A DNA stretch of 64,000 nucleotides from a bacterium (GTDB lineage Bacteria; Electryoneota; Electryoneia; Electryoneales; Electryoneaceae): contig CAXXKJ010000002.1 of the NCBI GenBank assembly GCA_963675295.2, positions 2,784,001-2,848,000 on the forward strand, in the 5' to 3' direction. The notes under the pieces are model-generated. The model was not told where the DNA came from. It searched no databases and was given only the letters and a program-made list of their open reading frames with translations. The first letter of the stretch is position 1. The number at the start of each line of letters is the position of its first letter. Shown here piece after piece: positions 8,394 to 28,350 of this stretch. The translations under genes and the position numbers were made by a program.

Positions 8394-8531
8394 GCCCACT
8401 GTCCCCCAATTCGTCGGATTGAAGTGACTCTCCGATGAACCCAGGCAAGATATGTGCCTCATGATCACGAAGTAAAAAACGTTCCGCTATCCCGCATTTG
8501 TTCCTCCCCTGCAAAGCTCTCGACAGAAAAG

Positions 8532-9084: not shown

Positions 9085-9148
9085 CATAACAACGGGAAAG
9101 GAGAAAAGGCATTCAGCAGCATGAAGTTTGGAACAGGGGGACAGGATC

Positions 9149-12051: not shown

Positions 12052-12485
12052 CCGTTTCGACCGATCCAGAACCGCTCGACTTTCTTCGTACCGTTTCCAG
12101 CCAAGCTGTCTTGATGACACCCAAGGACACTCCCAAACCACTCCCTCAAGCCCTGAGTGCATGAGAACGAAAGCTGGCCCAAGTTAACGCACAACTGTCC
12201 CACATCGTGAAGAAATGAGGCACGGTATGGGTCTTTTCCCTCATACAAGATATGCCTGGCCTGGACGCATCCGAATTCCTTCTTTCCCGGCACGGACCAC
12301 CTTGGAATCCGACTTAGCCTTTACTTCGATTGGTGAATTCGTTACCTTCTTCACGAAGCCGTGACGGGTTTGTTCAGTGGTCACGGTGCACCGCAATTTT
12401 TGTCCCCTGCGATGCGGTCACAACCCTGTAGATTCAAAGTGTGCAGTCTGGTTTCTATCGTCCACTCTTGATGAAAAGGTCAACG

Positions 12486-14310: not shown

Positions 14311-15669
14311 ATGGACCGGCGTCAATTCGTAAAAACATCCTTCAGCACCACCGCCGCGCTGGCCCTGGCGAACCAGGGCTTTTCCCAACCGAATCAGCCA
14401 AATGTGCTCTTCATCGGCGTCGAAGATCTTAACGACTGGATCGGTTGCCTCGGCGGTCATCCAGACACGATTACACCCAATTTCGACCGCCTCGCAAACA
14501 TGGGCATGCTGTTCAGCAACGCCCATTGCAACGCGCCCGCATGTGTTCCCTCACGAACCACGCTACTTACCGGAATTCGTCCATCGACTTCCGGCGTGTA
14601 TGACAACGGCATGCACTGGCAGGACTACATCCCGGACGCGGTGACAATGCCGGTCCACTTCAGGGACCATGGGTACACCACGCGAAAAGCAGGGAAGATC
14701 TTCCATTTTGAGGAACCGACTTTCTGGGATGATATGGCGCCCTTTTCCCCGAAGGTCATACCCCCGGAAAAACGGTATAACGGTCTGCCACTGAAGCCGA
14801 ATGATCGCTTCGACTGGACAGCACTGGATGTTCCGGAAGAAGAGATGCAGGATTACAAGCATGCGGATTATGTCATCTCAACCCTTGAAAACCCACCCGA
14901 TCAGCCGTACTTCCTCGCTTGTGGATTTCACAGGGTACACACTCCCTGGTACTACCCGCGGAAATACATGGAGAAGTTCAATCCGAACGAGGTGACATTA
15001 CCACCCTACCTGGAAAATGACCTCGATGATGTGTCCAATATCGGTATCAGCTTCACCTACCCTGCCCTGTTCAACCAGGTGAAGAATTACAAGCAGTGGC
15101 ATGCGGGAGTGGCTGCTTATCTCGCGGGCATCAATTTCATCGACGCACAGCTGGGCCGCATCCTCGATGCCTTTGACGCTACCGGAGCGGCGGACAACAC
15201 CATCATTGTCCTGTGGAGTGATCACGGCTGGCATTTGGGTGAGAAAAACCACTGGAAGAAGTTCACCTTATGGGAAGAGTCCACGCGTATCCCGATGATG
15301 ATTCATGTTCCCTGGTTGACGACGGAGAACAGCTCCTCCGACCAGCCCATGAGCATGGTTGACCTCTTCCCCACACTCAATGACCTCTGCGGATTGCCGG
15401 ACATTGATCAACTGGAAGGTTCAAGCCTCGTTCCCTGGCTGAGCAATCCCAATTTGCAACGAGCGGAACCGGCGCTGACGACCTACCGCTACATGAACCA
15501 CGCTCTGCGTGACGACCAATGGCGTTTCATACGGTACAACGACGGATCTGAAGAGTTATACGATCACGATACCGACCCGAATGAATGGACCAATCTAGCG
15601 GATATCCCCGCCTATCAGCCAATTAAGGATGCCCTGAGTCAGTGGTTTCCGGAGGTGAATCACCCATGA
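14311..15669 (+). CDS. Formylglycine-type sulfatase (iduronate/choline sulfatase-like) with Tat signal
   Basis: MDRRQF twin-arginine leader; PNVLFI; CVPSR (CxPxR); GKIFH; SDHGWHLGEK; ELYD. Confidence 0.92.
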   Translation: MDRRQFVKTSFSTTAALALANQGFSQPNQPNVLFIGVEDLNDWIGCLGGHPDTITPNFDRLANMGMLFSNAHCNAPACVPSRTTLLTGIRPSTSGVYDNGMHWQDYIPDAVTMPVHFRDHGYTTRKAGKIFHFEEPTFWDDMAPFSPKVIPPEKRYNGLPLKPNDRFDWTALDVPEEEMQDYKHADYVISTLENPPDQPYFLACGFHRVHTPWYYPRKYMEKFNPNEVTLPPYLENDLDDVSNIGISFTYPALFNQVKNYKQWHAGVAAYLAGINFIDAQLGRILDAFDATGAADNTIIVLWSDHGWHLGEKNHWKKFTLWEESTRIPMMIHVPWLTTENSSSDQPMSMVDLFPTLNDLCGLPDIDQLEGSSLVPWLSNPNLQRAEPALTTYRYMNHALRDDQWRFIRYNDGSEELYDHDTDPNEWTNLADIPAYQPIKDALSQWFPEVNHP

Positions 15670-17168
15670 GAAAGCCGGCATTCATTCGTTTGTCAACGTG
15701 GTCAGCAAGCCTGCTCGTGATTCTCCTGCTGGTGGGAGTCGATTACGCGAACGATCACCGTAAGCCGCACACCGATCGTTCCATCACCACCCTGAACAGT
15801 GGTTCGGCTTACGATATCCTGCTCTCTGTCACGACTGTGTCAACCGATGAGTTGCTGCTGACGGGACGGACATCCTCACACGATGCCGAGCTCGTTGACG
15901 GCTACCTCGCCCTGACCGACAGTAACGGTGAGCCGGTATGGGAGGAAACGTTCGGTGGTGAAGCATGGGATGAGCTTCGTGTCGCCGTCGAGGGTACGGA
16001 TGGCGGCTATCTCGCGGCAGGAACATCTGAATCAACGGACAATGAAACCTACGACTTCTGGGTCGTAAAAGTAGACGCTGCTGGATCCCTCGAATGGCAG
16101 ACTATGTACGGATCTGACACGGAAGATGACCAGATTGACGCGGTCCTGCCGGCAGCAGACGGTGGATACTACCTCGCTGGTTTCACCAACGATGATCTGG
16201 ACGACAACAGGTCAAACGTCTTCCTGGTCAAGATTGATCAGAATGGACAACTCGAATGGCAAAACTCATATGGCAGCGAGCGAAATGATTATTGCAACGC
16301 CATTGCCTTCACAGGCGACAACCACCTTCTGCTCGCTGGCAGCACGTTTTCCTACGAGGACGAACACCGCGATATCCACCTCGCGAAGGTTGAACTTGAT
16401 GGAGATCTTGTATCTGAAACGTTGATCCAGATCCCTCATCCGCAGATTTGCAATGCGATGGTGGCAAATGCTGACGGATCGTTTACCCTCTGTGGCGAAA
16501 CCTATCCTGACGATGACACGGAATTCAGTTCCGCGTTTGTCGCAAGGATCGATTCCGATCTGCAACTCGACTGGATGAATACCTACGGCTCGAATGGTAG
16601 TTTCGCGGCGCAGGATATCGTGATCCGGCCGGGCGGCGGGTACTACCTCAGCGGACGTGCGACCCCGAATAACGAAGTTGCATTCGACGGGTGGGTCTTT
16701 ACTGTCACACAGAATGGCAACCTGGATGAATCGTGGGAATTCGGCGGTGGTGCCTACGAAGAATTCTACGGTATCGACCTCGTCAGCGGCGACATTCCGG
16801 TAGCCGTCGGCTATACTTCATACAGCGCGTCACGACTCGCTGATTTCTACATGGTGATTGATCTGGAAGACTCGGTCGAGGTCGGTGAAGAGCGCCTACC
16901 AATGATGCCGATGTTGATGCAGGTCTACCCGAACCCGTTCAATTCGACCGCGATGATCGAGCTTGACCTGCCGGTACGTTCTGAAGTACAGGTCGTGCTC
17001 TACGACATGCTGGGACGCGAGGTAACCGTTGTTGCAGATCAGGTCGCTGGACCGGGCAGTCAGCAGATTTCCATTTCCGCGGAAACCCTCGCCTCCGGAA
17101 CTTACATCGTCTATGCCAGCACCGACACCGGACATTCTGCCGCACGCAAGCTTACACTGGTCAAATGA
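15666..17168 (+). CDS. Secreted beta-propeller repeat protein with T9SS-type CTD
   Basis: Same repeat type as the 12486 gene; YPNPFNS...KLTLVK; ATGA overlap with the sulfatase stop. Confidence 0.82.
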   Translation: MRKPAFIRLSTWSASLLVILLLVGVDYANDHRKPHTDRSITTLNSGSAYDILLSVTTVSTDELLLTGRTSSHDAELVDGYLALTDSNGEPVWEETFGGEAWDELRVAVEGTDGGYLAAGTSESTDNETYDFWVVKVDAAGSLEWQTMYGSDTEDDQIDAVLPAADGGYYLAGFTNDDLDDNRSNVFLVKIDQNGQLEWQNSYGSERNDYCNAIAFTGDNHLLLAGSTFSYEDEHRDIHLAKVELDGDLVSETLIQIPHPQICNAMVANADGSFTLCGETYPDDDTEFSSAFVARIDSDLQLDWMNTYGSNGSFAAQDIVIRPGGGYYLSGRATPNNEVAFDGWVFTVTQNGNLDESWEFGGGAYEEFYGIDLVSGDIPVAVGYTSYSASRLADFYMVIDLEDSVEVGEERLPMMPMLMQVYPNPFNSTAMIELDLPVRSEVQVVLYDMLGREVTVVADQVAGPGSQQISISAETLASGTYIVYASTDTGHSAARKLTLVK

Positions 17169-17248
17169 TAGCGTAACCGTTGGCAGGCAGCAAAAACGCT
17201 TGAACGTACGCCTTCAAAGCCTTTGAACAGAAGCTTCGTTGTTGTACT

Positions 17249-18139
17249 TCACCAGATCCATGTGTAGCCAAACAGCACCGCAACCGCGATGTGTACGAAC
17301 ATGATAATGAACATGACCAGTGCGAACGGCCGGTGGATGACATGCCAGTGGTGGAGTGTTTTGCGGGCGACGTTGAGGAAGGCACGGCGGCGGATCAGCA
17401 GCGCACGTTTCCGAGCCAGCGCCACCATGTCGCTGATGTGAGTGGACGCCAGCTCGGTTTCGCTGGCGATTTTGCTTCGCAGAGCACGAACCCGGATGGG
17501 ACGTAGCAAATCCTGTCCGATCCAGCTGAAGACCGCGCCGAACCCCTGTTTCTTTCCTTTGTGTCCGCCGCTCATGGTGCGGGTGATCTCGGCGACGAGC
17601 TCATCGGTCATGCCGGGCAACGCGCGCATTTCGCCTTGCAGCGAGCTGTCTATCGTATCCAGCTCGTGTTCCGATAACTCCTGTCCGGAAAGGGTGCGCG
17701 GGATCTGCAGGTAGATGTACCGTCCGAGCACGCCGCTAAGCGCCACCGCCACCATCGACCAGTAGCTGACCGCGACGATTCCGCCAAACTTGAACGTTGA
17801 GTGAAACGTGATCAGCAACGGGCCGGTGATACCCATCCAGATATGCACATTCAGCCAGTGTGACAGTTTGCCGGCGTTCTGCAGCTGGCGCATGTTCTTC
17901 CGAGGGATGTACAGCAGCAGGAGCATCATCAGCAGGCTGCCGATGATGCCGAGGCCGTGCCCGATGACCCCGCCCGCCTTCCACGCTTCATGCAATTGCA
18001 TGTGCGGACGGTCGAGCCGATCCGCGGTATAGTAATCCCAGCCCTGCACAGCGATCAGCACCACCGCGGCGATGGTCACGCTGAACAGCGCGATCATCAG
18101 CATCCGGTGCGCGAGGGACGGTTTCTGCTCCTGGTTCAT
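17249..18139 (-). CDS. Polytopic inner-membrane protein, probable heme-b/quinone-interacting subunit
   Basis: About 5-6 TM segments with His in or near the helices (GHGLG, WLNVHIW, TFHST, WHVIHRPF, FVHIA); last gene of the cytochrome cluster. Confidence 0.7.
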   Translation of the reverse strand: MNQEQKPSLAHRMLMIALFSVTIAAVVLIAVQGWDYYTADRLDRPHMQLHEAWKAGGVIGHGLGIIGSLLMMLLLLYIPRKNMRQLQNAGKLSHWLNVHIWMGITGPLLITFHSTFKFGGIVAVSYWSMVAVALSGVLGRYIYLQIPRTLSGQELSEHELDTIDSSLQGEMRALPGMTDELVAEITRTMSGGHKGKKQGFGAVFSWIGQDLLRPIRVRALRSKIASETELASTHISDMVALARKRALLIRRRAFLNVARKTLHHWHVIHRPFALVMFIIMFVHIAVAVLFGYTWIW

Positions 18140-18143
18140 GCGC

Positions 18144-19754
18144 TCAAAATCTCACACCCAGTTCGAGATAGCTGCGGTTGCTGTTCTGCAGGTCGCCGGA
18201 GGTGTATTCGTGATACACCTGCCCGTACCACCGCTGCCCGAAGGTAAACGACACGCCCGGGCGAATCCAGAAATCCGTGTAGCTTTCGTTGGTCGAGTCG
18301 TAGTCGTAGACACGTGTGCCGGCATCCAGGTGAACACGCGCGCGGCGGTGCGGATACATCGCCAACCCGAGCGAGGGCTGATACCCGGTGCTGTATGGGT
18401 TGTTGTAGTAGGCCAGCCGTGCATTCAGTGATACACCGCTGCTGAACAGGTCACGGTGGCTGAGGCTGGCATGGCCGGTGTACGTGTCGTCGCCGCCGTC
18501 GCTACGGGTACGCATGTTACCCTGAACCGTGAAACGCAGGTCGCGGGTCAAACGCAGGGTTGTCCCCAAACGCCAGCCCTCACGGACTGCATCATCGAAC
18601 AGGCTGTCCGGGGTGTCTTTCGTTTCCCACGTGCGCAGTATCCGGCGGTTGTCGTACCCGACATCGAAACTGGCCACATCGACCGGCGAGTATCGCACGC
18701 TGAACAGGATGTTGTCTAATTCCAGCGACGATCCAGTCGCCTCTTCGCGCCAGCCACGGTTCACAGCCAGTTCCGCGCTCTCGTATACCGTCAGCGTGCG
18801 ACCCAACGAGTAGCGAATCTGCTGATACAGAAATTCCTCGTCGATTTCGCCCCGGCGGTACGATCCGGCAAACGCCAGCGAGGCGTCAATCCGCTGGGAC
18901 GACCAGTCGCCGCGTGTGTGCTGCACGAATACACCGGTCTTGACCTCGTCACTGTTGACGCGGCTGGTGGTCGGGTCCGGCCGCAATCCACCGAATGCAC
19001 CCACGGTCCAGCTTTCCGCGAAATCGTAATCGACATACGCGCCATCAAACACACCGATCCCGCTCACCGCCCGGGCGTACACCCGCCCGACACGATACCC
19101 CAATGCCGACGCCGGGTCATCATACTGCAACGATGCTTCATAGATCCGGTTGTTCCACGGATCCGGGTATGTTGATTCCGCCTTGCTGTCACGCAGCTGA
19201 TAGCGCGACCGTCCTCGCAACTCGAAGCGCAGCGCGGTGCCGAACAAATCGTCCATCCGCAGCCGGGCCGTTAAGCCCGGTTCTGCCAGGTCACGGTTGT
19301 TGTCGTCCGTGCCGGTGTACCGCAGCTGCAGGCCGATCCGTCCACGTATTGTCATCGGTTTCGCCTCGGCAACCGGACGAGTGGCGCTGGCTGGTGTGGA
19401 AGGTGTCGCCGGAGTCGCGGAGTAGACCGGCGACTCGTCGATCGGGTCGAGCAGGCGTTGCGGGACCGTGAAATGCACAAGATCGCCGACCTGAAGCTCG
19501 TCCAGATCACCCTCGATCAACTCACAGGACGCGGACGCATCAGCGGTGAACAAAACCCGTCCCAAGGCGATTTGCTCGTGATCACGCAACACCTGAACCG
19601 TATCGCCCACTGCGAGACCGGCATTTGAGCCCGAGCCAATGAAGAAGCCGTCCGCCGTGAGGTAGCTGATCGTGGTTTCGCCCAGCGGCGCGGTTGCGAA
19701 CGCGTACCCTGTAACCAGCAGCAGGAGTGCGAATAGCATCGTGAGCCGTTTCAT
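18144..19754 (-). CDS. Outer-membrane beta-barrel (porin-like) protein
   Basis: Signal peptide, small N-terminal domain, P/T/A linker, many amphipathic strands, terminal YLELGVRF. Confidence 0.78.
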   Translation of the reverse strand: MKRLTMLFALLLLVTGYAFATAPLGETTISYLTADGFFIGSGSNAGLAVGDTVQVLRDHEQIALGRVLFTADASASCELIEGDLDELQVGDLVHFTVPQRLLDPIDESPVYSATPATPSTPASATRPVAEAKPMTIRGRIGLQLRYTGTDDNNRDLAEPGLTARLRMDDLFGTALRFELRGRSRYQLRDSKAESTYPDPWNNRIYEASLQYDDPASALGYRVGRVYARAVSGIGVFDGAYVDYDFAESWTVGAFGGLRPDPTTSRVNSDEVKTGVFVQHTRGDWSSQRIDASLAFAGSYRRGEIDEEFLYQQIRYSLGRTLTVYESAELAVNRGWREEATGSSLELDNILFSVRYSPVDVASFDVGYDNRRILRTWETKDTPDSLFDDAVREGWRLGTTLRLTRDLRFTVQGNMRTRSDGGDDTYTGHASLSHRDLFSSGVSLNARLAYYNNPYSTGYQPSLGLAMYPHRRARVHLDAGTRVYDYDSTNESYTDFWIRPGVSFTFGQRWYGQVYHEYTSGDLQNSNRSYLELGVRF

Positions 19755-22700
19755 CAGCGCGCCCCCTTCCGTTCTTCATCAGGTTCAATCTGATCCGGGA
19801 ACAGGTTCGGCCCTTCATCGCCGTCCGGGTGACAGTTGTAGCACGCGAGGCTGTTGTACTGATAGCCCGGAACGTCGTCGTGCTCGTTGTCCATCGCACC
19901 CTGCAAGTGGCAGGTTAGACAGGTGAAGTCGGTGTAGTCGTTGGGGTTCGGATGACACTCGGAACACGAATCCCACTCCCCCTGATGCTCACCGCTGTAT
20001 ATCGGGAACCAGACGATGTGGTTGAACTGAGCGTCCTCCCAGTCGAACGTATTGTGGCACAGGTCGCAAGTTGTGGGGAACATCACCTGCTGATGGTTCG
20101 GATCGTTTGTCTGGTTGTAGTCGTCCTCATGGCAGAAGAAGCACTCGTCCGGCGTGCCGGTGTATTGCCCACCAACATGGCACAGTGTGCAGTCCAGCGT
20201 CAGGTGCTGGCCGGTGAGGTCGTAATCGGTCTGCTGGTTATGGTCGAACGTGGACGGTGTCCAGCCGTTGACCGAGTGGCAGATCGTGCAGTCGGTCCCG
20301 AACGAACCCGGATCGTGCGGCGGATCGGCGTTGTTGAAACTGCCCTCGTGGCACGCAAAGCAGGTGGACGGCGTCCCCTCGTACCCGTTTGTATGGCACA
20401 TCGAGCAATTCACGCCCGTGTGTTCACCCTCAAGCGGGAAGTCGGTCCACTGATCGTGGTCGAAGCTGTCCAGCGGCGTCCAGCTGGCCTGCGTATGGCA
20501 GGTGGTGCAAACCTGCGGGTAGCTGTTTGTGACGTGGTTCGGATCGCTGACACCGTTGTAGTTGCCCTCATGACACGCGAAGCACTCCGTCGGCGTGCCG
20601 GTGTAGCCTTCACTGTGACACAGATTGCAGTCGAGCGTGGTGTGCGCGCCGACCAACGGGAAGCCGGTGTTGTTGTGGTCGAAATCGGCGTCGTCCCAGT
20701 CGGACGTGTTGTGGCAGATGGTGCAGTCGTGCGGGTAGTTGTTCGCCAGATGGTCCGGGTCGTCCGCGTTGTTGTAATCGTCCTCATGGCACGCGAAACA
20801 CTCCGTCGGCGTGCCGGTGTAACCTTCACTATGGCACAGGTTGCAGTCGAGTGTCGTGTGCGCGCCGGTCAACGGGAAGTCGGTGTTGTTGTGGTCGAAA
20901 TCGGCGTCGTCCCAGTCGGTCGTGTTGTGGCAGATGGTGCAGTCGTGCGGGTAGTTGTTCGCCAGATGGTCCGGATCGTCCGCGTTGTTGTAATCGTCCT
21001 CATGGCACGCGAAGCATTCGGTCGGAGTGCCCGTGTAGCCGTCGGCGTGACACAGATTGCAGTCGAGCGTGGTGTGCGCACCGGTCAACGGGAAGTCGGT
21101 GGTGTTGTGATCAAAATCGGCATCGTCCCAGTCAGACGTGTTATGGCAGATGGTGCAGTCCGTCGGGTAGTTTCCGGCGAGGTGATCCGGGTCGTCGGCG
21201 TCGTTGTAGTCCTCTTCGTGACAACCGAAACAGGTTTCCGGCGTGGACGCGTACTGCCCGTCGATATGGCAGTCGGCACAATTCAGCTCGGTGTGCGAGC
21301 CGTTGATCACGAACTGGGTTTGCGTGTCATGGTCGAAGGTGGACGGCGTCCAGCCCTCAATCGTGTGGCAGACTTCGCAATCGTTGCCGAATGATTCCGC
21401 TTCATGCGGCGGCACGGCTTGATCGAAGTCGTCCTGATGGCAGCTGATGCACGCGGGGTCGGTGTTGGCGTAGCCGTCGGCGTGGCAATCAACACAGGTC
21501 AGTCCGGCGTGTCCACCGATCAACGGGAATCCGGTCTGAACGTCATGTGGGAAGTCGTCATCATCGACATCCTCCCAATCGATCTGGTTGTGGCACTCGG
21601 TGCAGTCGGTCGGGTAGTTGTTCGCCGCGTGGTCGGGGTCGTCCGTGTTGTTGTAGTCGTCCTCATGGCAACCGAAGCAGGTCACCGGGGTGTTCACGTA
21701 CTGGCCATCGATATGGCAGTCGGCGCAATCGAGTTCGGTATGCGCCCCTTCGACGAGGAAATCGGTGTCCTGATCGTGATCGAAGCTGGACTGTTCCCAC
21801 GTTTGCGTGTCATGGCACAGCAGGCAGTCGAAATCGAACGAATCCGGATTATGGATTGGCTCGGTTGCGTCTTCGTAATCCACCTGATGGCAGGCGTAGC
21901 AGTCCGTTGGCGTATTGACATAGCCGTCAACGTGGCAATCGGCGCAATCGGTTTCGAGATGCGCGCCAGTCAGCGGAAATTCAGTCGCCTGGTGATCAAA
22001 CTCTGCCTCTTCCCAGTCGACGGGTGTGTGGCAAACTTCGCAGTCGGTTGGATACCCTTCGGCGGTGTGATCCGGATCGTCCGTATCGTTGTAGTCTTCC
22101 AGGTGGCAATCGAAGCACGCGTCCGGCAGGCCAACGTACACGTTGTTCAAGTGACACTGGGAACACTCGGCCTCACGGTGTCCGCCGACCAGCGGATACA
22201 TCGTGTCCGCATCATGGTCAAAGCCCGGCGCCGGAGACCAGCCGTCCGTGGTGTGGCAAATCGAGCAGTCGGACGCGAAGCTCGCCGGATTGTGCGGCGG
22301 ATTCGTCGCGCCGTCGTAATCGTCCTGATGGCAGCCGTTGCAGGCGGTCGGTGTGCCGGCATAACCAGCTGTGTGGCACTCGTTGCAATTCACCTCGCGG
22401 TGTTCGCCGGTGAGGTCGAAACCCGTGGTAGAGTGGTTGAAATCGTCCGCATCGTCCCAGTCATCGATGGTGTGGCAGATCGAGCAGTCGGTCGGGAAAC
22501 CGGCCTGCGCGTGGTTCGGGTCATCGGTTCGGTTGTAATCGTCTGCGTGGCAGGAATAACATTCGCTCGAGGTTTCAGCATAATTGCTGCCCGGTGCATG
22601 GCACGCCTGGCAGTCAAACACACGGTGCCCGCGCACGAGCGGGAAGTCCGGCGTATGGTCAAAGTCGACAATGCTCCCAGCCCAATCGACAGACACCAGT

Positions 22701-23263
22701 CCGTGGCACTCGTCGCACGTTGTACTGAATCCCGCCCCGGCATGGTCCGGGTTGTTCGCGTGATAGTAGTCATCCAGATGGCAGCCGGCGCAGTTGAGTG
22801 ACGCCTCGGCGTAGTTGCCGTCGGCGTGGCAGGCCGTGCACGCCAGGCCATCATGAGCACCGGTCAACGCGAACCGCGTCTGCTGGTGCATTTCCCGAAA
22901 GTGGGCTTCGTCGAACCAACCCTCGGGACTGTGGCATTGGCTACAGTCGTGCGTGAACTGTCCGGAATGGACATCCACATGGCAGTCGAAACACTGTGAG
23001 GACGCCTGCCGAAATTCGAGGGATTCATGGCAGAACTGGCAATCGACCTGCTCATGCCGTCCTTCCAGCGGGAAGGTGGTGGAATTGTGATCAAATTCCA
23101 GCGGCGCTTTCAGTTCGCTCCAGCCCTCAACCACATGGCACAACGAACAGTCGAGATCGAAGTCGTCGCCGTGCGGCATCGTCTGCACCGTTGCTCCCGG
23201 CACCGATCCGGCGAGGATCAGCAGCATCGCCAACAGCAGAAACAGCGTTCGGTCAACTCTCAT
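19754..23263 (-). CDS. Giant multiheme c-type cytochrome (46 CxxCH by manual count)
   Basis: Signal peptide from MRVDRT; about 72-aa triheme repeats; ATGA overlap with the upstream cytochrome. Confidence 0.93.
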   Translation of the reverse strand: MRVDRTLFLLLAMLLILAGSVPGATVQTMPHGDDFDLDCSLCHVVEGWSELKAPLEFDHNSTTFPLEGRHEQVDCQFCHESLEFRQASSQCFDCHVDVHSGQFTHDCSQCHSPEGWFDEAHFREMHQQTRFALTGAHDGLACTACHADGNYAEASLNCAGCHLDDYYHANNPDHAGAGFSTTCDECHGLVSVDWAGSIVDFDHTPDFPLVRGHRVFDCQACHAPGSNYAETSSECYSCHADDYNRTDDPNHAQAGFPTDCSICHTIDDWDDADDFNHSTTGFDLTGEHREVNCNECHTAGYAGTPTACNGCHQDDYDGATNPPHNPASFASDCSICHTTDGWSPAPGFDHDADTMYPLVGGHREAECSQCHLNNVYVGLPDACFDCHLEDYNDTDDPDHTAEGYPTDCEVCHTPVDWEEAEFDHQATEFPLTGAHLETDCADCHVDGYVNTPTDCYACHQVDYEDATEPIHNPDSFDFDCLLCHDTQTWEQSSFDHDQDTDFLVEGAHTELDCADCHIDGQYVNTPVTCFGCHEDDYNNTDDPDHAANNYPTDCTECHNQIDWEDVDDDDFPHDVQTGFPLIGGHAGLTCVDCHADGYANTDPACISCHQDDFDQAVPPHEAESFGNDCEVCHTIEGWTPSTFDHDTQTQFVINGSHTELNCADCHIDGQYASTPETCFGCHEEDYNDADDPDHLAGNYPTDCTICHNTSDWDDADFDHNTTDFPLTGAHTTLDCNLCHADGYTGTPTECFACHEDDYNNADDPDHLANNYPHDCTICHNTTDWDDADFDHNNTDFPLTGAHTTLDCNLCHSEGYTGTPTECFACHEDDYNNADDPDHLANNYPHDCTICHNTSDWDDADFDHNNTGFPLVGAHTTLDCNLCHSEGYTGTPTECFACHEGNYNGVSDPNHVTNSYPQVCTTCHTQASWTPLDSFDHDQWTDFPLEGEHTGVNCSMCHTNGYEGTPSTCFACHEGSFNNADPPHDPGSFGTDCTICHSVNGWTPSTFDHNQQTDYDLTGQHLTLDCTLCHVGGQYTGTPDECFFCHEDDYNQTNDPNHQQVMFPTTCDLCHNTFDWEDAQFNHIVWFPIYSGEHQGEWDSCSECHPNPNDYTDFTCLTCHLQGAMDNEHDDVPGYQYNSLACYNCHPDGDEGPNLFPDQIEPDEERKGAR
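20568..21200 (-). repeat. About three near-identical 216-bp intragenic repeats
   Basis: TTGCAGTCGAG occurs at 20625, 20841 and 21057. Confidence 0.88.
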
Positions 23264-25002
23264 CCATCCCTCCCGGGACGTTCCGGTTGATTTCCATGGC
23301 AGGCGCTGCACTCACGGTTCAGGCCCGCGTATTGGATGACATCCCTATCGCCAACCTGCGTCGGCTTGTGGCACAGATTGCAGGCCACATTTTCATGCCC
23401 GCCGGTGAGCGGGAAATTGGTATCACGATTGTGCACGAACAGCAAATCCGTCCAGCCGCTCGGGATATGGCACTGCTCGCAACCGTCGGACGCGACAATC
23501 TCCGCGAACTGGGCGGCGTGCGGATCGTCATGGCACGCCGCGCAGGTACGTTCCAGCGGCTTCATCCACACCAGTTCCTCGCCGGCGTCTGTCTCGATCC
23601 AGTGGCACTTGAGGCAGAGGATCTCGCGATGCTTTCCCTGCAACGGGAATCGCGCGAGGTTGTGATCGAAGCTGGTGCGGCTCCACGTGCTGGTGTTGTG
23701 GCAGAATTCGCAGCCGTTTTTGTCGATCCAGATGTCGAGTTGGCTGCGATGGATGTCGTCGTGGCACGCCTGGCAGCGCGTCGACTCGAAGGTGAAGGTC
23801 GCGTACGAATCGCCCGTGTCGTCCATCTTCTGCACATGGCACAGCGCGCAGGGTATCGCGCGGTGGCTGCCGGTCAGTGCGAAGTCTGTCTGCTTGTGTT
23901 CGCTGAGACTGAAGGTGGTCCTGTGGAATGGACGTTCGACACTGTGGCAGGCATCGCAGGCACCACCGTCCGCACGATCCGTGAACTGGCCGCGGTGCTC
24001 GTCCTCGTGGCAATCCCGGCAACGGTCGTACGCCAATGGTTCGGTCATCGAGCCGCTGGTGTGGCAATTAAGGCACTGGACCTGCTGATGCAGGCCAAGG
24101 AGCGGAAACTCAGTTCGGCTGTGGTCAAACTCGCCGGACGCCGTCGCGGACTGGAACCCGGCTGTCGTGTGGCAACGGCTGCAGTCGGCACCGAACCGTC
24201 CTTTGTGCACGTCCTCATGGCAAGCGGCGCAACTGGCATACGACAGGCCTGCGTACTGCGCGTAGCTGTCAGGACTGTTTTTGTCCACGATCATTCCGGC
24301 GGAGTGAGACGTGCGCGGTAAAGCGGCGTGGCATTTGACGCACTCGAGGTCCGTGTGACGACCGGTCAGCGCGTACTCGGTGTCACGCGAGTGGTCGAAT
24401 CCGGGAGCGGGCTTCCATGCCTGCTGGGTGTGACAACTGGTGCAGGTATTTGTCAACTGGTCGGCGTGTTCATCTTCGTGGCAGCTGACGCATTGAGAAT
24501 CCAAGCCGAGGAAGGTGCTTTCCTCGTTGACGACGTTCTCCGCAGAGAAGGCGTCCTCGGTGTGAAATCGCGGCTGATGGCATTCGCGACAGTCGAGATT
24601 CTGATGGGCGCCGGAGAATGTCCAGCCGGTTAACCCGTGGTCAAACTCGCTCTGACCGGACGGCCAGTAGATCAGTTCATGGTCGCGGCCGTGATGTTCT
24701 GAATGGCAGGTGGTACAGGCTTCGCCCTGAACCTCGGAGCTGGCGTGGTAGCCTTGCCCGGCGTCGATGCGAGAGTTCAGGGTTGTATGACAGGTGAGGC
24801 ACTTGTCGCCAACAACCGCCTGACCCAGTTCGTGACACTGGGTGCATTTCGTTATGCCTTCAAGGGATTCATGCGCGGCGGACAGCTTGCCGGGAGAGAT
24901 CTGAGCTGATGCAAAATCAGCTGCAACGCTGAAGAAAATCAGCAAAGCGAACACGTACAGGATGCAACGGCTGCGCTTGGGGGTGAACGTTGCCGGTTTC
25001 AC
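23260..25002 (-). CDS. Multiheme c-type cytochrome (20 CxxCH by manual count)
   Basis: Signal peptide, then QISPGKLSAAH and FDH...FPLxGxH-type repeats. Confidence 0.93.
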   Translation of the reverse strand: MKPATFTPKRSRCILYVFALLIFFSVAADFASAQISPGKLSAAHESLEGITKCTQCHELGQAVVGDKCLTCHTTLNSRIDAGQGYHASSEVQGEACTTCHSEHHGRDHELIYWPSGQSEFDHGLTGWTFSGAHQNLDCRECHQPRFHTEDAFSAENVVNEESTFLGLDSQCVSCHEDEHADQLTNTCTSCHTQQAWKPAPGFDHSRDTEYALTGRHTDLECVKCHAALPRTSHSAGMIVDKNSPDSYAQYAGLSYASCAACHEDVHKGRFGADCSRCHTTAGFQSATASGEFDHSRTEFPLLGLHQQVQCLNCHTSGSMTEPLAYDRCRDCHEDEHRGQFTDRADGGACDACHSVERPFHRTTFSLSEHKQTDFALTGSHRAIPCALCHVQKMDDTGDSYATFTFESTRCQACHDDIHRSQLDIWIDKNGCEFCHNTSTWSRTSFDHNLARFPLQGKHREILCLKCHWIETDAGEELVWMKPLERTCAACHDDPHAAQFAEIVASDGCEQCHIPSGWTDLLFVHNRDTNFPLTGGHENVACNLCHKPTQVGDRDVIQYAGLNRECSACHGNQPERPGRDG

Positions 25003-25080
25003 AAAGTGTCTCGATCAGGTCGCTGTTGACTTGTTGCAAAAACTACATAAGTTTGCACCAGTGTGCCAATGATGAAACCG

Positions 25081-26388
25081 CTAAACCTCCCCAAACTTTC
25101 GCGTGAATTCGATCCCGATGCTCTGGAGGAATTCGGTGGGCAGAACACCGCCAGCGAACACAAATACCTGGTCATTGGCCAGTTCCTGTTCATCATCTCC
25201 GACACGAAGCAGCGCCTTGCCGGGCTCCAGTTTTAACACCTCCGAACTGTAAAGCGGGTGAACTTCGCCGGAGGCAATGGATCTCTCCAGGCGTTCCGCG
25301 TTCTTCTCCTTGATCCGGAAGATCTTGTCCCGCCGGTAGCTCAGATGGACTGTTGTACCGGGCTGTTCACCGAGGGACACGGCCGCTTCCACCGCGCTGT
25401 CGCCACCTCCAACCACGAGGATTTTCTTGTCTGCGAAGTGTTCGGGATCCATCAACCGGTAGTATACGCGCGGCGACTCTTCGCCGGGAATACCCAGCTT
25501 GCGGGGGGTCCCGCGTCGGCCGATCGCCAGCAGAACACGCCGGGCATGGTACTCCTGTTTGCTGGTGACAACCCGGAAATGGCCGTTTTCACGGCTGACA
25601 CTCTCGCATTTTTCCCCAGTCTGAACCGTCAGGTCGGTTTTCTGGAACACGGACTGGAACGTACTGAGCAGATTCTCCTTCTCCACTTCCCGCACCTTGA
25701 TCGTGCCGTAGCCGGGCAGCTCCAGCGGCTGAGTCATCACCAGCTTGCGGCGCGGATACGAGAGGATCGTGCCACCGAGATCGTCCTGGTCGATGGTGAC
25801 AAACCGCAGTCCCTCTTCTTTCGCCTGCAACGATGCCGCGATCCCCGCCGGACCCGAGCCGACAATCAGCAGGTCGAGCAGATCCTGACCGTCCTCGCGT
25901 TCGAGGCTCTTCACGATGTACTCGGTTGCCTGCCGGCCCTGAGTCACTGCATTGCGGATCAAGCCCATCCCGCCCAGCTCACCGGCGATGTAAACACCCG
26001 GAACATTGGTCTCGAACGTACCCTTCAGGTGTGGAATGTCGACTCCGCGCTTTTCGGTGCCGAAGACGAGCGTGATTGCGTTCACCGGGCACGCAGCCTG
26101 GCACAACCCATGCCCGATGCAGTTGGACGGACTGATCAGCTTGCCGGCATTGTCAATCAGGCCGAGCACGTTCTGTTCCGGACACGCACGCACGCATGCC
26201 CCCGACCCGATGCAGATGTTCGGGTCGATCACCGGGTGCAGCGAAACCGGCTGGTCACGGCCACTCTCGACCGCCTTGGTCAACGTTTCCGCAGCACGCT
26301 TGCTCTTGCTTCGTTCGCGATACCAGTAGATGCCGGGAATCAGCACAACCAGCATTCCAACAGCGACGTAAATGAGGGTCTCTAGCAT
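25081..26388 (-). CDS. Membrane-anchored ferredoxin-fused FAD/NAD(P)-dependent oxidoreductase (TrxB/FNR-like)
   Basis: N-terminal TM helix; CIGSGACVRACP and CIGHGLCQAACP; ETNVPGVYIAGE; GSGPAG; GGGDSA; SYRR. Confidence 0.88.
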   Translation of the reverse strand: MLETLIYVAVGMLVVLIPGIYWYRERSKSKRAAETLTKAVESGRDQPVSLHPVIDPNICIGSGACVRACPEQNVLGLIDNAGKLISPSNCIGHGLCQAACPVNAITLVFGTEKRGVDIPHLKGTFETNVPGVYIAGELGGMGLIRNAVTQGRQATEYIVKSLEREDGQDLLDLLIVGSGPAGIAASLQAKEEGLRFVTIDQDDLGGTILSYPRRKLVMTQPLELPGYGTIKVREVEKENLLSTFQSVFQKTDLTVQTGEKCESVSRENGHFRVVTSKQEYHARRVLLAIGRRGTPRKLGIPGEESPRVYYRLMDPEHFADKKILVVGGGDSAVEAAVSLGEQPGTTVHLSYRRDKIFRIKEKNAERLERSIASGEVHPLYSSEVLKLEPGKALLRVGDDEQELANDQVFVFAGGVLPTEFLQSIGIEFTRKFGEV

Positions 26389-26784
26389 CGGGATGATCTG
26401 CGCGTTTTACAGTGGATCAGCTGATGTTGTATCACATACGTGATGAATGTACTCAAAGCCTGTTGGAAATTAAACTCTTGTGACAGATGGCCACAACTCG
26501 AATCCGCCATGGCCGTTTCCGTTCCACTATCCGTCCACACCACTGTCCTCTGCAAAAAACCGGCTGCTGAATGATCTCCAGTTTATGCAAAAGATACACG
26601 AAATGATGCTGCCCAGCGGATGCGCCAGCCTTGGCGGTCTGCTCTCACAAAATTCGGCAATATGACAGGATTTCGCGTTTTCGTGCGGCGTTCTGAATAC
26701 ATTGAATTTGATGTGGTTGATTCCAATTCGCCACAGAGTGCCTCGATTGGGGCATGAGGGTAGTTTTCGACATGGGGGGAAGCG

Positions 26785-28350
26785 ATGAAGACGATAGCTG
26801 CGATCTTGATTGTGCTGTGCGTGGCGTGTGTCGTCAACGCACAGTGGGCACAATGGACGCCGATGAACGCCAGCCGCTACGGTCTCGACGCCATTGAGTA
26901 CAACGGGGATATTTATGCTGTTGGCGGCATGGATAACCTGGTCCCCGTAACGACAATGGAGCGGTATTCGGGTGGAACCTGGACCTATCTGGCCAATCTT
27001 CCCGTCGCGCAGGGCTATCTGTGCGCAGCATTGGTTGGTGACAAGATTTACAGCTTCGGCGGCTACGGCCCGTTGAGCACAATTCAAATCTATGACATTC
27101 CATCGAATACCTGGTCTACGAGCCCGGCTGTGTTGCCAATTCCATTGTATTGGGCGACTGCGGAAACTGTGGGGAAACACGTGTACGTGATCGGCGGGTA
27201 CACGGTTCCGGGAGGCGCTCAAGACGATGTGTATATCCTGAACACGACGACCAATTCATGGACCATGGGAACTCCCTGTCCGGTAACGTTGCAGGGCTGC
27301 ACATCGGTCATCTATAACGGGTATATCTACGTTTTCAGCTACAATGGGGACTACAAGTACAACTACACGACCGACACCTGGACCTCTATCGCAAACCGGA
27401 CCTACCTGACCCGAGGCGCTTCAGCGGAAGTCATCAACGACGCCATCTATGTGATCGGCGGCCATTTCGGTAACATTTACGAAGCTGAAGACTATACCCA
27501 GATCTACGACACCGCTTCAGATTACTGGACTATGGGTCCGGATATGATTTTCGCGCGCTATCACCTCGCGTCCGCTTATGTGAACGACTACCTGTACAGT
27601 ATCGGTGGACGTGATGCGAACGGAGGTTCAAACAACTGGGTGGAACGGCTGTATGTGATGGGTGGACCGCCGATGCTTGAGCTCAGCATGACACCGATAA
27701 CAGCCAACATTCCTGCGGGCGGAGGTATGTTCCGTTATATCGCCTATGTGACCAACAATACGGGCAGCCTGCTTGTCCGTGATGCCTGGACGTATGTGCG
27801 TCTTCCCGGAGGCGCATTCTACGGTCCCCTGATGACGAGGACTGTCAACCTGCCACCGGGATTGGTTACGGCGCCCAATCTTCGTGAAGCGATTCCGGGC
27901 TATGCACCACCTGGTGAGTACACGTTCCATGGATACGTCGGAACGTTCGTACCGTGGATTGTCGATGCGACCAACACATGCTACTTCACCAAATTGACGA
28001 CCGGACCCGGGAATGTGGATGAGTGGTTCGGAACGGAGTGGGAATTCACATCAGATGCGAACCGGATGACGGTTGAGCGGCCATCGGAATACACGATGGT
28101 AACCGCCTATCCGAACCCGTTCAATGCCTCAACTGTTGTCACGGTAAATCTGCCGGAACCATCTGAGCTGACGGTGACGGTTTTCAACGCTGCCGGCCAG
28201 ACTATCGCCGAGCTGGCGAGTGGATCGTACACTGCTGGGATAAACCACTTCACATTTGACGCTTCAGGACTTGCAAGTGGCTTGTACTTCATCCACGCCA
28301 CAGTACCCGGTCACCTGAACAAGTTCCAAAAGGTGATGCTGGTACGCTGA
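26785..28350 (+). CDS. Secreted Kelch-repeat protein with T9SS-type CTD
   Basis: Signal peptide; about six Kelch repeats (IYAVGG, IYSFGG, VYVIGG, ...); YPNPFN...QKVMLVR. Confidence 0.88.
   Translation: MKTIAAILIVLCVACVVNAQWAQWTPMNASRYGLDAIEYNGDIYAVGGMDNLVPVTTMERYSGGTWTYLANLPVAQGYLCAALVGDKIYSFGGYGPLSTIQIYDIPSNTWSTSPAVLPIPLYWATAETVGKHVYVIGGYTVPGGAQDDVYILNTTTNSWTMGTPCPVTLQGCTSVIYNGYIYVFSYNGDYKYNYTTDTWTSIANRTYLTRGASAEVINDAIYVIGGHFGNIYEAEDYTQIYDTASDYWTMGPDMIFARYHLASAYVNDYLYSIGGRDANGGSNNWVERLYVMGGPPMLELSMTPITANIPAGGGMFRYIAYVTNNTGSLLVRDAWTYVRLPGGAFYGPLMTRTVNLPPGLVTAPNLREAIPGYAPPGEYTFHGYVGTFVPWIVDATNTCYFTKLTTGPGNVDEWFGTEWEFTSDANRMTVERPSEYTMVTAYPNPFNASTVVTVNLPEPSELTVTVFNAAGQTIAELASGSYTAGINHFTFDASGLASGLYFIHATVPGHLNKFQKVMLVR

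Follow-up and report, generated by a model that had tools for sequence, protein, structure and literature searches.

Which known system, if any, does a bacterial operon represent that encodes a flavoprotein, two large multihaem cytochromes, a barrel and an inner-membrane protein, and where would electrons enter and leave it? We addressed this question for a five-gene operon in a 64,000-nucleotide stretch of DNA (the window), which has the following features:

17249–26388, minus strand: five-gene operon (ORF list and translations)
25081–26388, minus strand: membrane-anchored Fe-S flavoprotein, 435 aa (Pfam, solved relatives, motif alignment)
23260–25002, minus strand: 20-haem cytochrome c, 580 aa (20 CxxCH, Pfam Cytochrome_C7)
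19754–23263, minus strand: 46-haem cytochrome c, 1169 aa from its probable start (46 CxxCH, Pfam)
20555–21208, minus strand: tandem DNA repeat in the 46-haem gene (Tandem Repeats Finder, score 1017)
18144–19754, minus strand: 22-strand outer-membrane beta-barrel, 536 aa (AlphaFold2 model, Foldseek, VIA-align)
17249–18139, minus strand: five-helix inner-membrane protein, 296 aa (motifs, invariant residues, model)

Inspection of the translations placed the five ORFs at these coordinates, all on the minus strand, in the 5' to 3' order flavoprotein, 20-haem cytochrome, 46-haem cytochrome, barrel, membrane protein. Read directly, the junctions bear out the preliminary description, in which the last four genes overlap or lie within 4 bp of each other: the TGA stop of the 20-haem gene (23262–23260) overlaps an ATG (23263–23261) as ATGA, the barrel ATG shares one base with the stop of the 46-haem gene (TGATG, 19756–19752), and the membrane-protein ATG lies 4 nt beyond the barrel stop. 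The flavoprotein gene is separated from the 20-haem gene by 78 nt. The longest ORF for the 46-haem protein (19754–23311) begins with a GTG at 23311; since an ATG further in, at 23263, forms the ATGA overlap and has GGAGG just upstream, the protein probably starts there, at residue 17 of the ORF. The flanking genes, both on the plus strand, are convergent (15642–17168) and divergent (26785–28350); hence, the five genes form a self-contained unit.

We counted 20 and 46 CxxCH motifs in the two cytochromes, exactly the 66 haems originally described, and no CxxxCH, CxxxxCH or CxxCK. Only 21 of the 16,662 ORFs of at least 80 aa in the genome contain at least three CxxCH, and the operon cytochromes have the highest counts, far above chance. 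The proposed check for cytochrome c maturation genes found CcsA-family genes in the same genome. The 20-haem cytochrome has a Sec-type signal peptide and matches Cytochrome_C7 (E=3.4e-26). Among 66 complete homologue ORFs, 52 encode 20 haems, 11 encode 17, two encode 19 and one encodes 15. Such a near-constant number across phyla would be expected of a spacer bridging a fixed periplasmic width, and the protein is a candidate periplasm-spanning wire. The 46-haem cytochrome (Cytochrome_C7, E=1.4e-34) is built from a single haem and 15 three-haem units of 72–77 aa, each with three further conserved His, and is strongly acidic (pI 4.1; 227 D+E versus 15 K+R); the haem number of its homologues ranges from 12 to 73. 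The surplus of His in both cytochromes (97 for 46 haems, 45 for 20) would fit bis-His wiring. The tandem repeat has a period of 216 nt (72 aa, one three-haem unit), with 3.0 copies and 88% matches, and corresponds to three near-identical protein units at residues 727–944, numbered from the M17 start; it reads as a recent triplication of the three-haem unit. By sequence and Pfam, the 46-haem protein has neither a lipobox Cys nor a T9SS C-terminal domain, and it is a candidate barrel-threading or extracellular wire.

In the barrel model (m67c93008d1f7, AlphaFold2, mean pLDDT 83.2), the signal peptide is followed by a small beta domain at the N-terminus (24–96), predicted to be periplasmic, then by a disordered Pro/Ala/Thr linker (101–127) and 22 strands (135–535); the last residue is Phe. 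Foldseek returned 340 PDB matches at E<=1e-3, outer-membrane barrels without exception, and the best neighbours by VIA-align were 22-strand TonB-dependent-transporter (TBDT) barrels (Z 18–19.4, 339–369 residues aligned). Thus, the protein is modelled as a barrel of adequate size, with the dimensions of a TBDT barrel, as the earlier reading needed. Structure comparison indicates that it lacks a plug domain of its own, and we found no Pfam or NCBIfam family for it.

The operon is predicted to share with MtrCAB of Shewanella an outer-membrane barrel that holds a multihaem cytochrome and passes electrons outside. However, the MtrB barrel has 26 strands rather than 22, the operon barrel has no MtrB/PioB-family match (0 Pfam families), the haems number 20 + 46 rather than 10 + 10, and the entry differs from a CymA-type quinol dehydrogenase. 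The cytochromes had been called unrelated to decahaem Mtr proteins. This stands for the decahaem DmsE/MtrA model, where they score 51.8 and 33 bits, far under the cut-off of 192.2, but not for the MtrC/MtrF domain II/IV model, which both pass (37.9 bits for the 20-haem and 66.3 for the 46-haem protein, against a cut-off of 30).

A closer parallel is PCC3, a predicted porin-cytochrome c cluster (He, Barco, Emerson & Chan 2017, PMC5566968; Hoover et al. 2023, PMC9900912) termed 'functionally unverified' in 2025 (PMC12442390). As outlined in the available portions of these papers, PCC3 comprises a porin, a near-constant ~21-haem 'periplasmic' and a variable 'extracellular' cytochrome, both repetitive and low in residues per haem (25–29 aa per haem in the two operon cytochromes), and a ~300-aa inner-membrane protein (IMP) with five TM helices, SGxxG on TM4 and W-x3-H-x13-H on TM3 and TM5. 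The operon membrane protein, with 15 His in total, carries these motifs at residues 95 (TM3), 135 (TM4) and 265 (TM5), and has TM4 and TM5 separated by a cytoplasmic helical insert of ~110 residues. Among 92 homologues, SGxxG is present in all and the two W-x3-H-x13-H motifs in 90. Because the protein has every published PCC3/PCC4 "IMP" hallmark, the cluster classifies as a PCC3-like porin-cytochrome conduit, and the resemblance proposed earlier holds for the published hallmarks (helix number, both motifs and gene set). PCC3 is described, in the same portions, as a cluster of four genes in Alpha-, Beta- and Gammaproteobacteria, with a porin of up to 42 predicted TM regions; here, by contrast, the barrel has 22 strands and, as in the FCB group, a fifth gene, that for the Fe-S flavoprotein, is constant. 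The available portions of the PCC3 papers do not mention such a flavoprotein, and PMC12442390 contains neither the word 'FAD' nor 'oxidoreductase'.

What, then, would the fifth gene contribute? The flavoprotein has an N-terminal TM helix, a basic stretch, a two-cluster ferredoxin-like domain (residues 51–107; Fer4_10, E=5.4e-12) and a TrxR/YpdA-like FAD and NAD(P)H domain (residues 172–433; Pyr_redox_3, E=1.1e-43). Its closest solved structures are YpdA/Bdr (7a7b, E=3.5e-23) and TrxR-like ferredoxin-NADP reductases. The whole protein has only 7 Cys and lacks a CxxC disulfide. The Fe-S motifs are C59-x5-C65-x3-C69-P and C90-x-G-H93-G-x-C96-x3-C100-P, and all 78 sequences compared retain the six Cys and H93. 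Both motifs lack the second Cys, which the invariant His replaces in one of them; the first site has three Cys here and four in 21 of the 78 relatives. Hence, the original label 'ferredoxin' calls for some qualification. NADPH is more likely than NADH to be the donor, given the kinship to YpdA and TrxR-like reductases and a basic motif that we take to be TrxR-like and to point to NADPH.

The five genes travel together, as the preliminary description anticipated. The complete set is found at 29 of 33 membrane-protein-centred loci with full 10-kb flanks, all 33 of which have the flavoprotein gene, and at 11 of 18 loci centred on barrel matches. At all 80 membrane-protein-centred loci the cluster genes lie on a single strand; at 10 of these the flavoprotein gene is at the far end, after the barrel gene, and does not adjoin the membrane-protein gene. 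The complete set is carried by Calditrichota, Ignavibacteriota, Bacteroidota, Marinimicrobia, Zixibacteria and KSB1, among others, and it occurs widely within the FCB group, the Bacteroidota-related bacteria. In 41 related, and thus not independent, genomes, barrel and membrane protein co-occur in 19, the barrel is alone in one, the membrane protein is alone in three, and 18 have neither.

Two natural fusions, P0166 (733 aa) and P0167 (753 aa), join a whole flavoprotein to a whole membrane protein, in that order. They share 43% identity over about 430 aa with the operon flavoprotein and 24% over about 300 aa with the membrane protein, and retain both H-x13-H pairs; their order would fit a cytoplasmic flavoprotein C-terminus and membrane-protein N-terminus. 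We also predicted the complex of the two operon proteins with 2 haems and 2 Fe-S clusters, and obtained an ipSAE of 0.58, versus 0.00 for the best of 3 controls, with at least 79% of contacts shared between runs and partner pLDDT of at least 73. Of 157 solved complexes, 116 attained the mark taken as support, as did 2 of 215 mismatched pairs; only 18 of the 157 complexes had values of 0.60 or below, as did both passing mismatches, and the calibration is rough, since custom alignments and ligands were used. The modelling proposed earlier thus gives weak support to the pair.

The membrane protein is a putative di-haem-b transmembrane electron carrier. W95, H99, H113, S135, G136, G139, H263, W265, H266, H269 and H283 are invariant in 24 sequences of 41–75% identity, in line with the expected conservation of its membrane His. 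Its Pfam matches, Ferric_reduct (E=0.0044) and DUF4405 (E=0.011), are weak and under the curated cut-offs; at E<=0.1, 22 of 24 family members match DUF4405 and 15 match Ferric_reduct, the best at about 1e-5. With the model (m9373a1d44585, pLDDT 80.9), Foldseek gave no match at E<=1e-3, and a wider fold search gave STEAP1 (Z 7.1) and STEAP4 (Z 6.9), with unrelated helical bundles scoring alike. The source of the two-component NOX-like concept for Fre-MsrQ is reportedly Juillan-Binard et al. 2017. In the available part of PMC12525009, Fre-MsrQ of E. coli is a 'two-component NOX-like system', and is a precedent for a cytosolic NAD(P)H reductase feeding a membrane haemoprotein of the FRD family. 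With Fre-MsrQ and NOX/FRE/STEAP proteins the operon is predicted to share a cytoplasmic NAD(P)H flavoenzyme, a bis-His membrane haemoprotein with sites on two helices, and a periplasmic acceptor. It differs in a membrane-anchored reductase of TrxR/YpdA type with two Fe-S clusters, in five helices rather than six plus the cytoplasmic insert, in its sub-threshold Ferric_reduct match and in its acceptor, a 66-haem chain. The DUF4405, MsrQ-like and PepSY-like membrane cytochromes are likewise small and have four conserved His at their centre, and one DUF4405 protein is demonstrated to bind haem b; in the portion of PMC11334425 available, however, they are tied to ApbE flavinylation and FMN-binding partners, unlike the operon protein, which is accompanied by an NAD(P)H Fe-S flavoprotein and by multihaem cytochromes.

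We consider it fairly probable that the operon encodes a PCC3-like trans-envelope conduit with its own quinone-independent entry module and with flow likely outward. The entry is best read as a split NOX-like system of NAD(P)H, FAD, two Fe-S clusters and two haems b that would bypass quinones. Cytoplasmic NAD(P)H would reduce the FAD of the tethered flavoprotein, from which electrons would pass singly to the two unusual Fe-S clusters, one with the invariant His as ligand. These clusters may adjoin the membrane, because the Fe-S domain comes straight after the anchor helix, and would pass electrons to two stacked b-type haems held by H99/H269 on the cytoplasmic and H113/H283 on the periplasmic side. 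The 20-haem cytochrome would collect electrons at the periplasmic face and hand them to the 46-haem cytochrome. The latter, whose gene appears to be coupled in translation to that of the barrel, probably runs through the 22-strand barrel, which has no plug, and reaches the outside, its length seeming to evolve fast by duplication of three-haem units. The route from NAD(P)H to the surface would thus be continuous.

The same hardware might instead have a quinol oxidase or quinone reductase as membrane protein, with the flavoprotein as an accessory (repair, regulatory or alternative low-flux donor). He et al. 2017 likened the IMP to two cytochrome b subunits, those of the bc1 complex and [NiFe]-hydrogenase, and their scheme has it exchanging electrons with the quinone pool (PMC5566968, in the portion available); 3 of 24 family members weakly match Ni_hydr_CYTB, and the wide fold search gave NarI and quinol:fumarate-reductase cytochrome b at Z 6.2. 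MsrQ carries ubiquinone, yet the available part of the same paper argues that quinones cannot donate to it (PMC12525009). We consider this arrangement unlikely, since the flavoprotein gene is present at every fully flanked locus, the fusions occur, the predicted complex passes weakly with controls at zero, and no quinone-site motif is known.

For the NAD(P)H-fed conduit, outward flow is the most likely direction, since the membrane potential favours outward electrons and NAD(P)H is a strong reductant; the acceptor would be mineral Fe(III)/Mn(IV), humics, partner cells or electrodes. An inward conduit, from Fe(II), minerals, Fe(0), cathodes or partner cells through the flavoprotein to NAD(P)+, is rather unlikely. 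Bis-His c7-type haem chains can in principle run in both directions, PCC3 is found in genomes of Fe(II) oxidisers (where an inward role is assumed), and carriers of the module include MAGs labelled Prolixibacteraceae, a family with iron-corroding isolates. However, inward transfer opposes the membrane potential and Fe(II) to NAD(P)+ is strongly uphill, the operon encodes no energy-coupling subunit, and the window gives no hint of lithotrophy, the neighbours of the operon being a sulfatase, T9SS-sorted proteins and hydrolases.

The module also lies on a plasmid of Emticicia oligotrophica, with ccsA directly upstream; this host is presumably aerobic, so mineral respiration is perhaps not the module's only or main role. 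The operon might alternatively encode a non-respiratory NOX/FRE-like extracytoplasmic reductase that obtains iron by reducing it, reduces extracellular oxidants or O2 (so producing or detoxifying superoxide) or provides periplasmic or surface enzymes with reductant. This reading would suit an architecture that is that of an NADPH oxidase or ferric reductase divided between two proteins, a likely preference for NADPH (a biosynthetic or defence reductant, over catabolic NADH) and the occurrence of the module on the plasmid of a Cytophagales isolate from spring water and in Marinimicrobia MAGs from the water column. It is unlikely, however, since 66 covalent haems and a dedicated barrel would be very costly for soluble substrates or iron uptake, an outer wire of variable length better suits contact with solids, and the cluster includes no conserved target enzyme.

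If the quinone-independent, outward conduit is correct, the operon would be an electron vent that regenerates NAD(P)+ outside the quinone pool.

The preliminary description of this region as five co-oriented genes was borne out in every detail: five minus-strand ORFs span 17249-26388, and their translations and motif counts agree with it. These genes, and four secreted proteins that lie around them, are listed here.

Genes of the operon (17249-26388, minus strand) and type-IX-sorted proteins around it
Operon, minus strand: flavoprotein, 435 aa, with an N-terminal hydrophobic helix, a basic stretch, Fer4_10 at residues 51-101 and Pyr_redox_3 (E=1.1e-43)
Operon, minus strand: small cytochrome, 580 aa, 20 CxxCH
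Operon, minus strand: large cytochrome, 1185 aa in the longest ORF, 46 CxxCH
Operon, minus strand: barrel, 536 aa, without a family match
Operon, minus strand: membrane protein, 296 aa, hydrophobic, 15 His
9128-11608, plus strand: secreted protein with a type-IX-secretion C-terminal sorting domain
12441-14291, plus strand: secreted protein with a type-IX-secretion C-terminal sorting domain
15642-17168, plus strand: secreted protein with a type-IX-secretion C-terminal sorting domain
26785-28350, plus strand: secreted protein with a type-IX-secretion C-terminal sorting domain

Reading the junction directly, we found an ATG preceded by GGAGG that overlaps the stop codon of the 20-haem gene (ATGA); hence, the 46-haem protein probably starts at residue 17 of its longest ORF. 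The stop codon of the 46-haem gene in turn overlaps the ATG of the barrel gene (TGATG), 4 nt separate the barrel gene from the membrane-protein gene, and the neighbours on both sides of the operon are on the opposite strand. Scans of 16900-27000 gave no usable signal for sigma-70 promoters (3 sites versus 3.2 expected) or intrinsic terminators (12 versus 7.7), and a sigma-54 promoter pattern matched 29 times in the window versus 33.5 expected, with no match upstream of the operon. An inverted repeat, TTGTG-N9-CACAA, at 26478-26496 (minus strand), ~90 nt upstream of the flavoprotein ATG, resembles a target of a dimeric regulator; the region upstream of the same-genus copy does not conserve it.

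The type-IX-sorted neighbours (one beta-helix/NosD-like, one Kelch-repeat and two unknown) place the organism in the FCB group. Elsewhere in the window, a sigma-54-dependent response regulator adjoins a 1133-aa histidine kinase with FG-GAP repeats (3691-8468, minus strand), and a 468-aa ORF with 8 CxxCH, an octahaem cytochrome c, is located 20 kb from the operon (46485-47891, plus strand). The source genome has a second multihaem cluster outside the window (G000:C2:4435057-4446001, minus strand), in which six adjacent ORFs carry 17, 19, 4, 7, 11 and 9 CxxCH; it contains no copy of the operon's membrane protein, flavoprotein or barrel.

The earlier reading required that the five genes occur together in other genomes, and they do. 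Among 41 related genomes, which are kin and not independent, the barrel was found in 20 and the membrane protein in 22, with both in 19, the barrel alone in 1, the membrane protein alone in 3 and neither in 18. In the barrel-only genome the locus ends at a contig end, and the three genomes with only the membrane protein are fragmented assemblies. All five genes were present in 11 of 18 stretches fetched around barrel matches; the other seven either run into contig ends or hold cytochrome and barrel without the membrane protein and flavoprotein. We then drew on a pattern scan in which each species was represented by a single genome. It yielded 569 stretches with a relative of the membrane protein, of which we analysed the best 80. 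These come from MAGs labelled Calditrichota, Ignavibacteriota, Bacteroidota (Prolixibacteraceae, Draconibacterium, Mariniphaga, Tangfeifania, Saprospiraceae and Cytophagia), Neomarinimicrobiota, Zixibacteria, KSB1, Delongbacteria and Acidobacteriota. Within the best 80 of the 569 loci, 66 have the flavoprotein, 68 a cytochrome of the 20-haem class, 59 the large cytochrome and 46 the barrel, and all genes of the set were on one strand. Where flanks were complete, 29 of 33 of these loci have all five genes, the remaining four having split or missing genes. The commonest order among the best 80 is membrane protein, flavoprotein, 20-haem cytochrome, large cytochrome, barrel (25 loci); the order in the window, where the membrane protein comes at the end, is the one seen in its genus. 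Some genomes (loci L021/L030 and L028; genomes G004 and G011) have an extra 9-haem cytochrome with a second, divergent barrel (25-26% identity), a pair that adjoins the main set or stands apart, and Marinimicrobia-type loci have an 8-haem cytochrome inserted before the barrel.

A search of plasmids returned Emticicia plus one distant Methylophaga match, and nothing else. Emticicia oligotrophica DSM 17448, a cultured Cytophagales isolate, carries the whole set on plasmid pEMTOL02 (NC_018749.1 78197-89995, the operon's counterparts at 81299-89995), in the order ccsA, membrane protein, 'NAD(P)-binding domain-containing protein', two 'cytochrome c3 family' proteins with 23 and 40 haems, and a 538-aa hypothetical protein. 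The ccsA gene directly before the set is a 1028-aa fused cytochrome c biogenesis gene. This position and the plasmid location point to a mobile, self-sufficient cassette. On Methylophaga pinxianii plasmid NZ_CP095734.1 (11938-15292), three genes stand side by side, for a 612-aa '2Fe-2S cluster-binding protein', a distant membrane-protein relative (22% identity) and a cytochrome c of 254 aa, and a complete ccm operon and genes for metal resistance lie close by. The trio is a smaller, distant variant of the theme of reductase, membrane haemoprotein and cytochrome.

Both cytochromes of the operon are of the c7/c3 type, and their surplus His are numerous enough to give all haems bis-His ligation. 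The 46-haem protein, which is extremely acidic (pI 4.1), consists of one haem plus fifteen three-haem units of 72-77 residues, each with three additional conserved His; in the DNA, three of the units form a tandem repeat (period 216 nt, 88% matches) that arose by recent triplication. Among complete ORFs from the best 80 of 569 loci, the small cytochrome has 20 haems in 52 of 66 cases, 17 in 11, 19 in 2 and 15 in 1, while homologues of the large cytochrome from the best 80 range from 12 to 73 haems. The constant haem number of the small cytochrome is consistent with a spacer over a fixed periplasmic width, and the length of the large cytochrome, variable and driven by repeats, with an exposed wire. 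Haems in MtrA and OmcS are spaced at ~0.8 nm per haem, so that 20 haems would span ~16 nm and 46 haems ~36 nm. Hoover et al. make the same spacer argument for a 21-27-haem PCC3 protein (PMC9900912).

The barrel has no Pfam or NCBIfam match at E<=0.01. Its predicted structure (pLDDT 83.2) comprises a signal peptide, a small beta domain (residues 24-96), a disordered linker and 22 strands, and the C-terminal residue is Phe, as is common among outer-membrane proteins. Foldseek matches of the model are outer-membrane barrels only, and VIA-align ranks 22-strand TonB-dependent transporters as its nearest structures (Z up to 19.4, 339-369 residues aligned). Thus, the supposition that this protein is an outer-membrane barrel, on which the conduit reading had been made to depend, held by the model and by both sets of neighbours. 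The protein matches TonB-dependent transporters in its 22-strand size but lacks their plug, and a plug-less barrel of this size, as modelled, leaves room for a polypeptide.

The membrane-protein model (pLDDT 80.9) has helices at residues 9-32, 58-75, 92-114, 120-145 and 232-290, with a helical insert of ~110 residues between the fourth and fifth membrane helices. In an alignment of 24 sequences of 41-75% identity, W95, H99, H113, S135, G136, G139, H263, W265, H266, H269 and H283 are invariant; conservation of the membrane His had been set as a test of the earlier reading. W-x3-H-x13-H motifs start at residues 95 and 265, and SGxxG at 135; both histidine motifs are present in 90 of 92 homologues from fetched loci, and SGxxG in all 92. 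The two bis-His pairs, 13 residues apart (H99/H113 on TM3 and H269/H283 on TM5) and stacked across the membrane, have the arrangement expected of the PF01794 superfamily and are candidate haem sites. Ferric_reduct (PF01794) scores 17.5 bits versus a cut-off of 28, with weak matches in 15 of 24 members (best E=1e-5), and DUF4405 (PF14358) scores 16.6 bits versus 26.7, with weak matches in 22 of 24 (best E=2.4e-5). A fold search placed STEAP1 (Z 7.1, 149 aligned, rmsd 6.1) and STEAP4 (Z 6.9, 154 aligned, rmsd 6.8) amid unrelated helical bundles. Foldseek of the model against the PDB gave no match at E<=1e-3, the top rows being GPCRs; the family profile gave only chance matches to PDB sequences (troponin C, E~0.07); and ESM Atlas look-alikes were unnamed clusters, mostly from Acidobacteriota, Gemmatimonadota and Verrucomicrobiota, that offered no functional lead. 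For one DUF4405 protein, binding of haem b is described as demonstrated (PMC11334425). The membrane-protein family is large, with 4103 representatives at 50% identity that match at E<=1e-3 and 715 at E<=1e-30. The first ~270 residues of a separate 663-aa protein, P0165, match the membrane protein at 47% identity and the remainder consists of cytochrome c3/c7 domains; P0165 is either a fusion of membrane protein and cytochrome or a mis-called gene.

The flavin domain of the flavoprotein is closest to YpdA/Bdr (7a7b, E=3.5e-23) and to thioredoxin-reductase-like ferredoxin-NADP+ reductases. We rejected a role as a disulfide reductase: the flavin domain lacks CxxC, and scores are far below the equivalog cut-offs for both TIGR04018, the YpdA/Bdr bacillithiol-disulfide reductase (163 versus 339.9 bits), and TIGR01292, the thioredoxin reductase (87 versus 343.45 bits). 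Judged by its sequence, the flavoprotein is a relative of YpdA and TrxR and not a family member, and it differs from YpdA/Bdr and thioredoxin reductase in its added TM anchor and Fe-S domain. Across an alignment of 78 family members, six Fe-S Cys never vary. The usual second Cys is missing from both Fe-S motifs of the query; at this position the second motif has His in 78 of 78 members, and the first has Ser (40), Cys (21), Thr (11), Ala (4) or Met (1). By established ferredoxin chemistry, we therefore predict one His-ligated [4Fe-4S] cluster and one three-Cys cluster, possibly [3Fe-4S], in the query organism. His-ligated clusters often sit where electrons enter or exit, as in the distal cluster of [NiFe] hydrogenases. 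In all 78 members a hydrophobic N-terminal helix is followed by Lys/Arg, which by the positive-inside rule suggests that the bulk of the protein is cytoplasmic, with the Fe-S domain adjoining the membrane. A basic motif behind the second Rossmann fold holds the invariant R352 and R358 and resembles the NADPH-binding motif of thioredoxin reductase, hinting at NADPH as the substrate.

Three lines of evidence say that the flavoprotein belongs to the wire: its presence at the loci, natural fusions and complex prediction. None of the 33 fully flanked loci among the best 80 of 569 lacks it. Two proteins, P0166 (733 aa) and P0167 (753 aa), consist of a complete flavoprotein followed by a complete membrane protein that retains both haem motifs; each is the sole member of its cluster and comes from a short contig, such that an assembly artefact is possible, and the alignments are continuous across the junction. 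Complex prediction for the membrane protein with the flavoprotein gave an ipSAE of 0.58 (three runs) versus 0.00 for the best of three controls, a verdict of 'weak support', with at least 79% contact agreement between runs and a partner pLDDT of at least 73. Among solved complexes, 116 of 157 attained the mark used, as did 2 of 215 mismatched pairs, and scores <=0.60 were those of 18 of the 157 solved complexes plus both mismatches that passed; these calibration counts are rough, given custom alignments and riding ligands. He et al. 2017 noted clusters of 'MHC + IMP + another redox protein' (PMC5566968).

PCC3 was put forward as a computational proposal for Proteobacteria, with four genes and a membrane protein drawn on the quinone pool (PMC5566968, PMC9900912), and was described in 2025 as 'functionally unverified' (PMC12442390). 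The inner-membrane protein (IMP) of PCC3 and PCC4 is described as ~300 aa long, with five helices, SGxxG on TM4 and W-x3-H-x13-H on TM3 and TM5, motifs in which He et al. see a likeness to the pair of bis-His haem-b sites in ferric-reductase domains (PMC5566968). The 'periplasmic' PCC3 cytochrome is given as near-constant, with 21, 24 or 27 haems, and the 'extracellular' one as having 10-35 and up to 85 (PMC5566968, PMC9900912). The likeness to PCC3 noted earlier stands on these published features. The operon has the gene arrangement by which He et al. 2017 define PCC3, and the 29 complete loci keep it; our membrane protein has every IMP hallmark, namely size, five helices, SGxxG and both W-x3-H-x13-H motifs; and the contrast between a near-constant small and a variable large cytochrome recurs. 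None of the best 80 of 569 loci is from a known PCC3 host. We found no published flavoprotein partner or FCB-group version of the conduit in the literature searched, which covers few subscription journals. Arbour et al. 2020 report both 'OmbB-like' PCCs and cytochromes of 33 and 40 haems in anode-biofilm Ignavibacteria, which may be the same module.

Other known systems fit less well. MtrCAB, MtoAB and PioAB can be set aside: there is no MtrB/PioB-family porin, the family-less barrel having 22 strands; the decahaem model DmsE/MtrA TIGR03508 scores 51.8 and 33 bits versus a cut-off of 192.2; and Mtr-type cytochromes have 10 haems, in contrast to 20 and 46 here. On sequence grounds, the operon belongs to neither the Mtr nor the MtoAB systems. 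A preprint on EET in peat concerns another system, with cytochromes of 8-13 haems, the Verrucomicrobia PCC has octahaem cytochromes, and the Caldithrix abyssi genome paper and an Ace Lake paper naming Ca. Electryonea describe other systems or are silent on the cluster.

We conclude that a split NOX-like entry feeding a PCC3-like conduit is the best-supported reading. Electrons would pass from NAD(P)H to FAD, through two Fe-S clusters and two haems b to 20 c-haems, and on to 46 c-haems through the barrel. Domains, motifs, conservation, synteny and fusions along this path are observed; from them we infer its cofactors, contacts and flow. Electrons might instead flow inward to NAD(P)+, a direction that opposes the membrane potential and is uphill unless the donor is very reducing. 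We favour outward flow, because of the low potential of NAD(P)H and the membrane potential. Outward flow through the NOX-like entry would regenerate NAD(P)+ with no energy conserved at that step, and such venting is akin in logic to the flavin-based EET of Listeria.

More broadly, we tentatively suggest, at somewhat less than even odds, that a mobile, self-contained 'electron vent' exists in FCB-group bacteria and probably in many further phyla. Its entry, a pair resembling a split NADPH oxidase and made up of an Fe-S flavoprotein tethered to the membrane and a five-helix di-haem-b protein, would put cytoplasmic NAD(P)H electrons straight into a trans-envelope haem wire without a quinone step, the wire consisting of a fixed-length periplasmic cytochrome and a fast-evolving outer cytochrome of variable length. 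If so, the entry point in the published PCC3 model is wrong, and a large, ecologically widespread class of EET is fermentation-linked redox balancing, not respiration. Outer-membrane conduits such as Mtr and Geobacter Pcc/Ext draw on the quinone pool via dedicated quinol dehydrogenases; a conduit that NAD(P)H feeds directly would differ in its bioenergetic design, with no membrane energy conservation and an unlimited sink for reducing equivalents. This idea is directly testable, since the cultured Emticicia isolate, which is non-pathogenic, has the whole set on its plasmid. The constant 20/17-haem cytochrome and its 12-73-haem partner are a natural experiment on how the length of a haem wire is set and on its evolution through duplication of a three-haem unit. 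A conduit fed by NAD(P)H would also give a new reading of the 'multihaem cytochrome' genes found in metagenomes from sediments, aquifers and oxygen-minimum zones, touching MAGs labelled Calditrichota, Ignavibacteriota, Marinimicrobia, Zixibacteria and KSB1.
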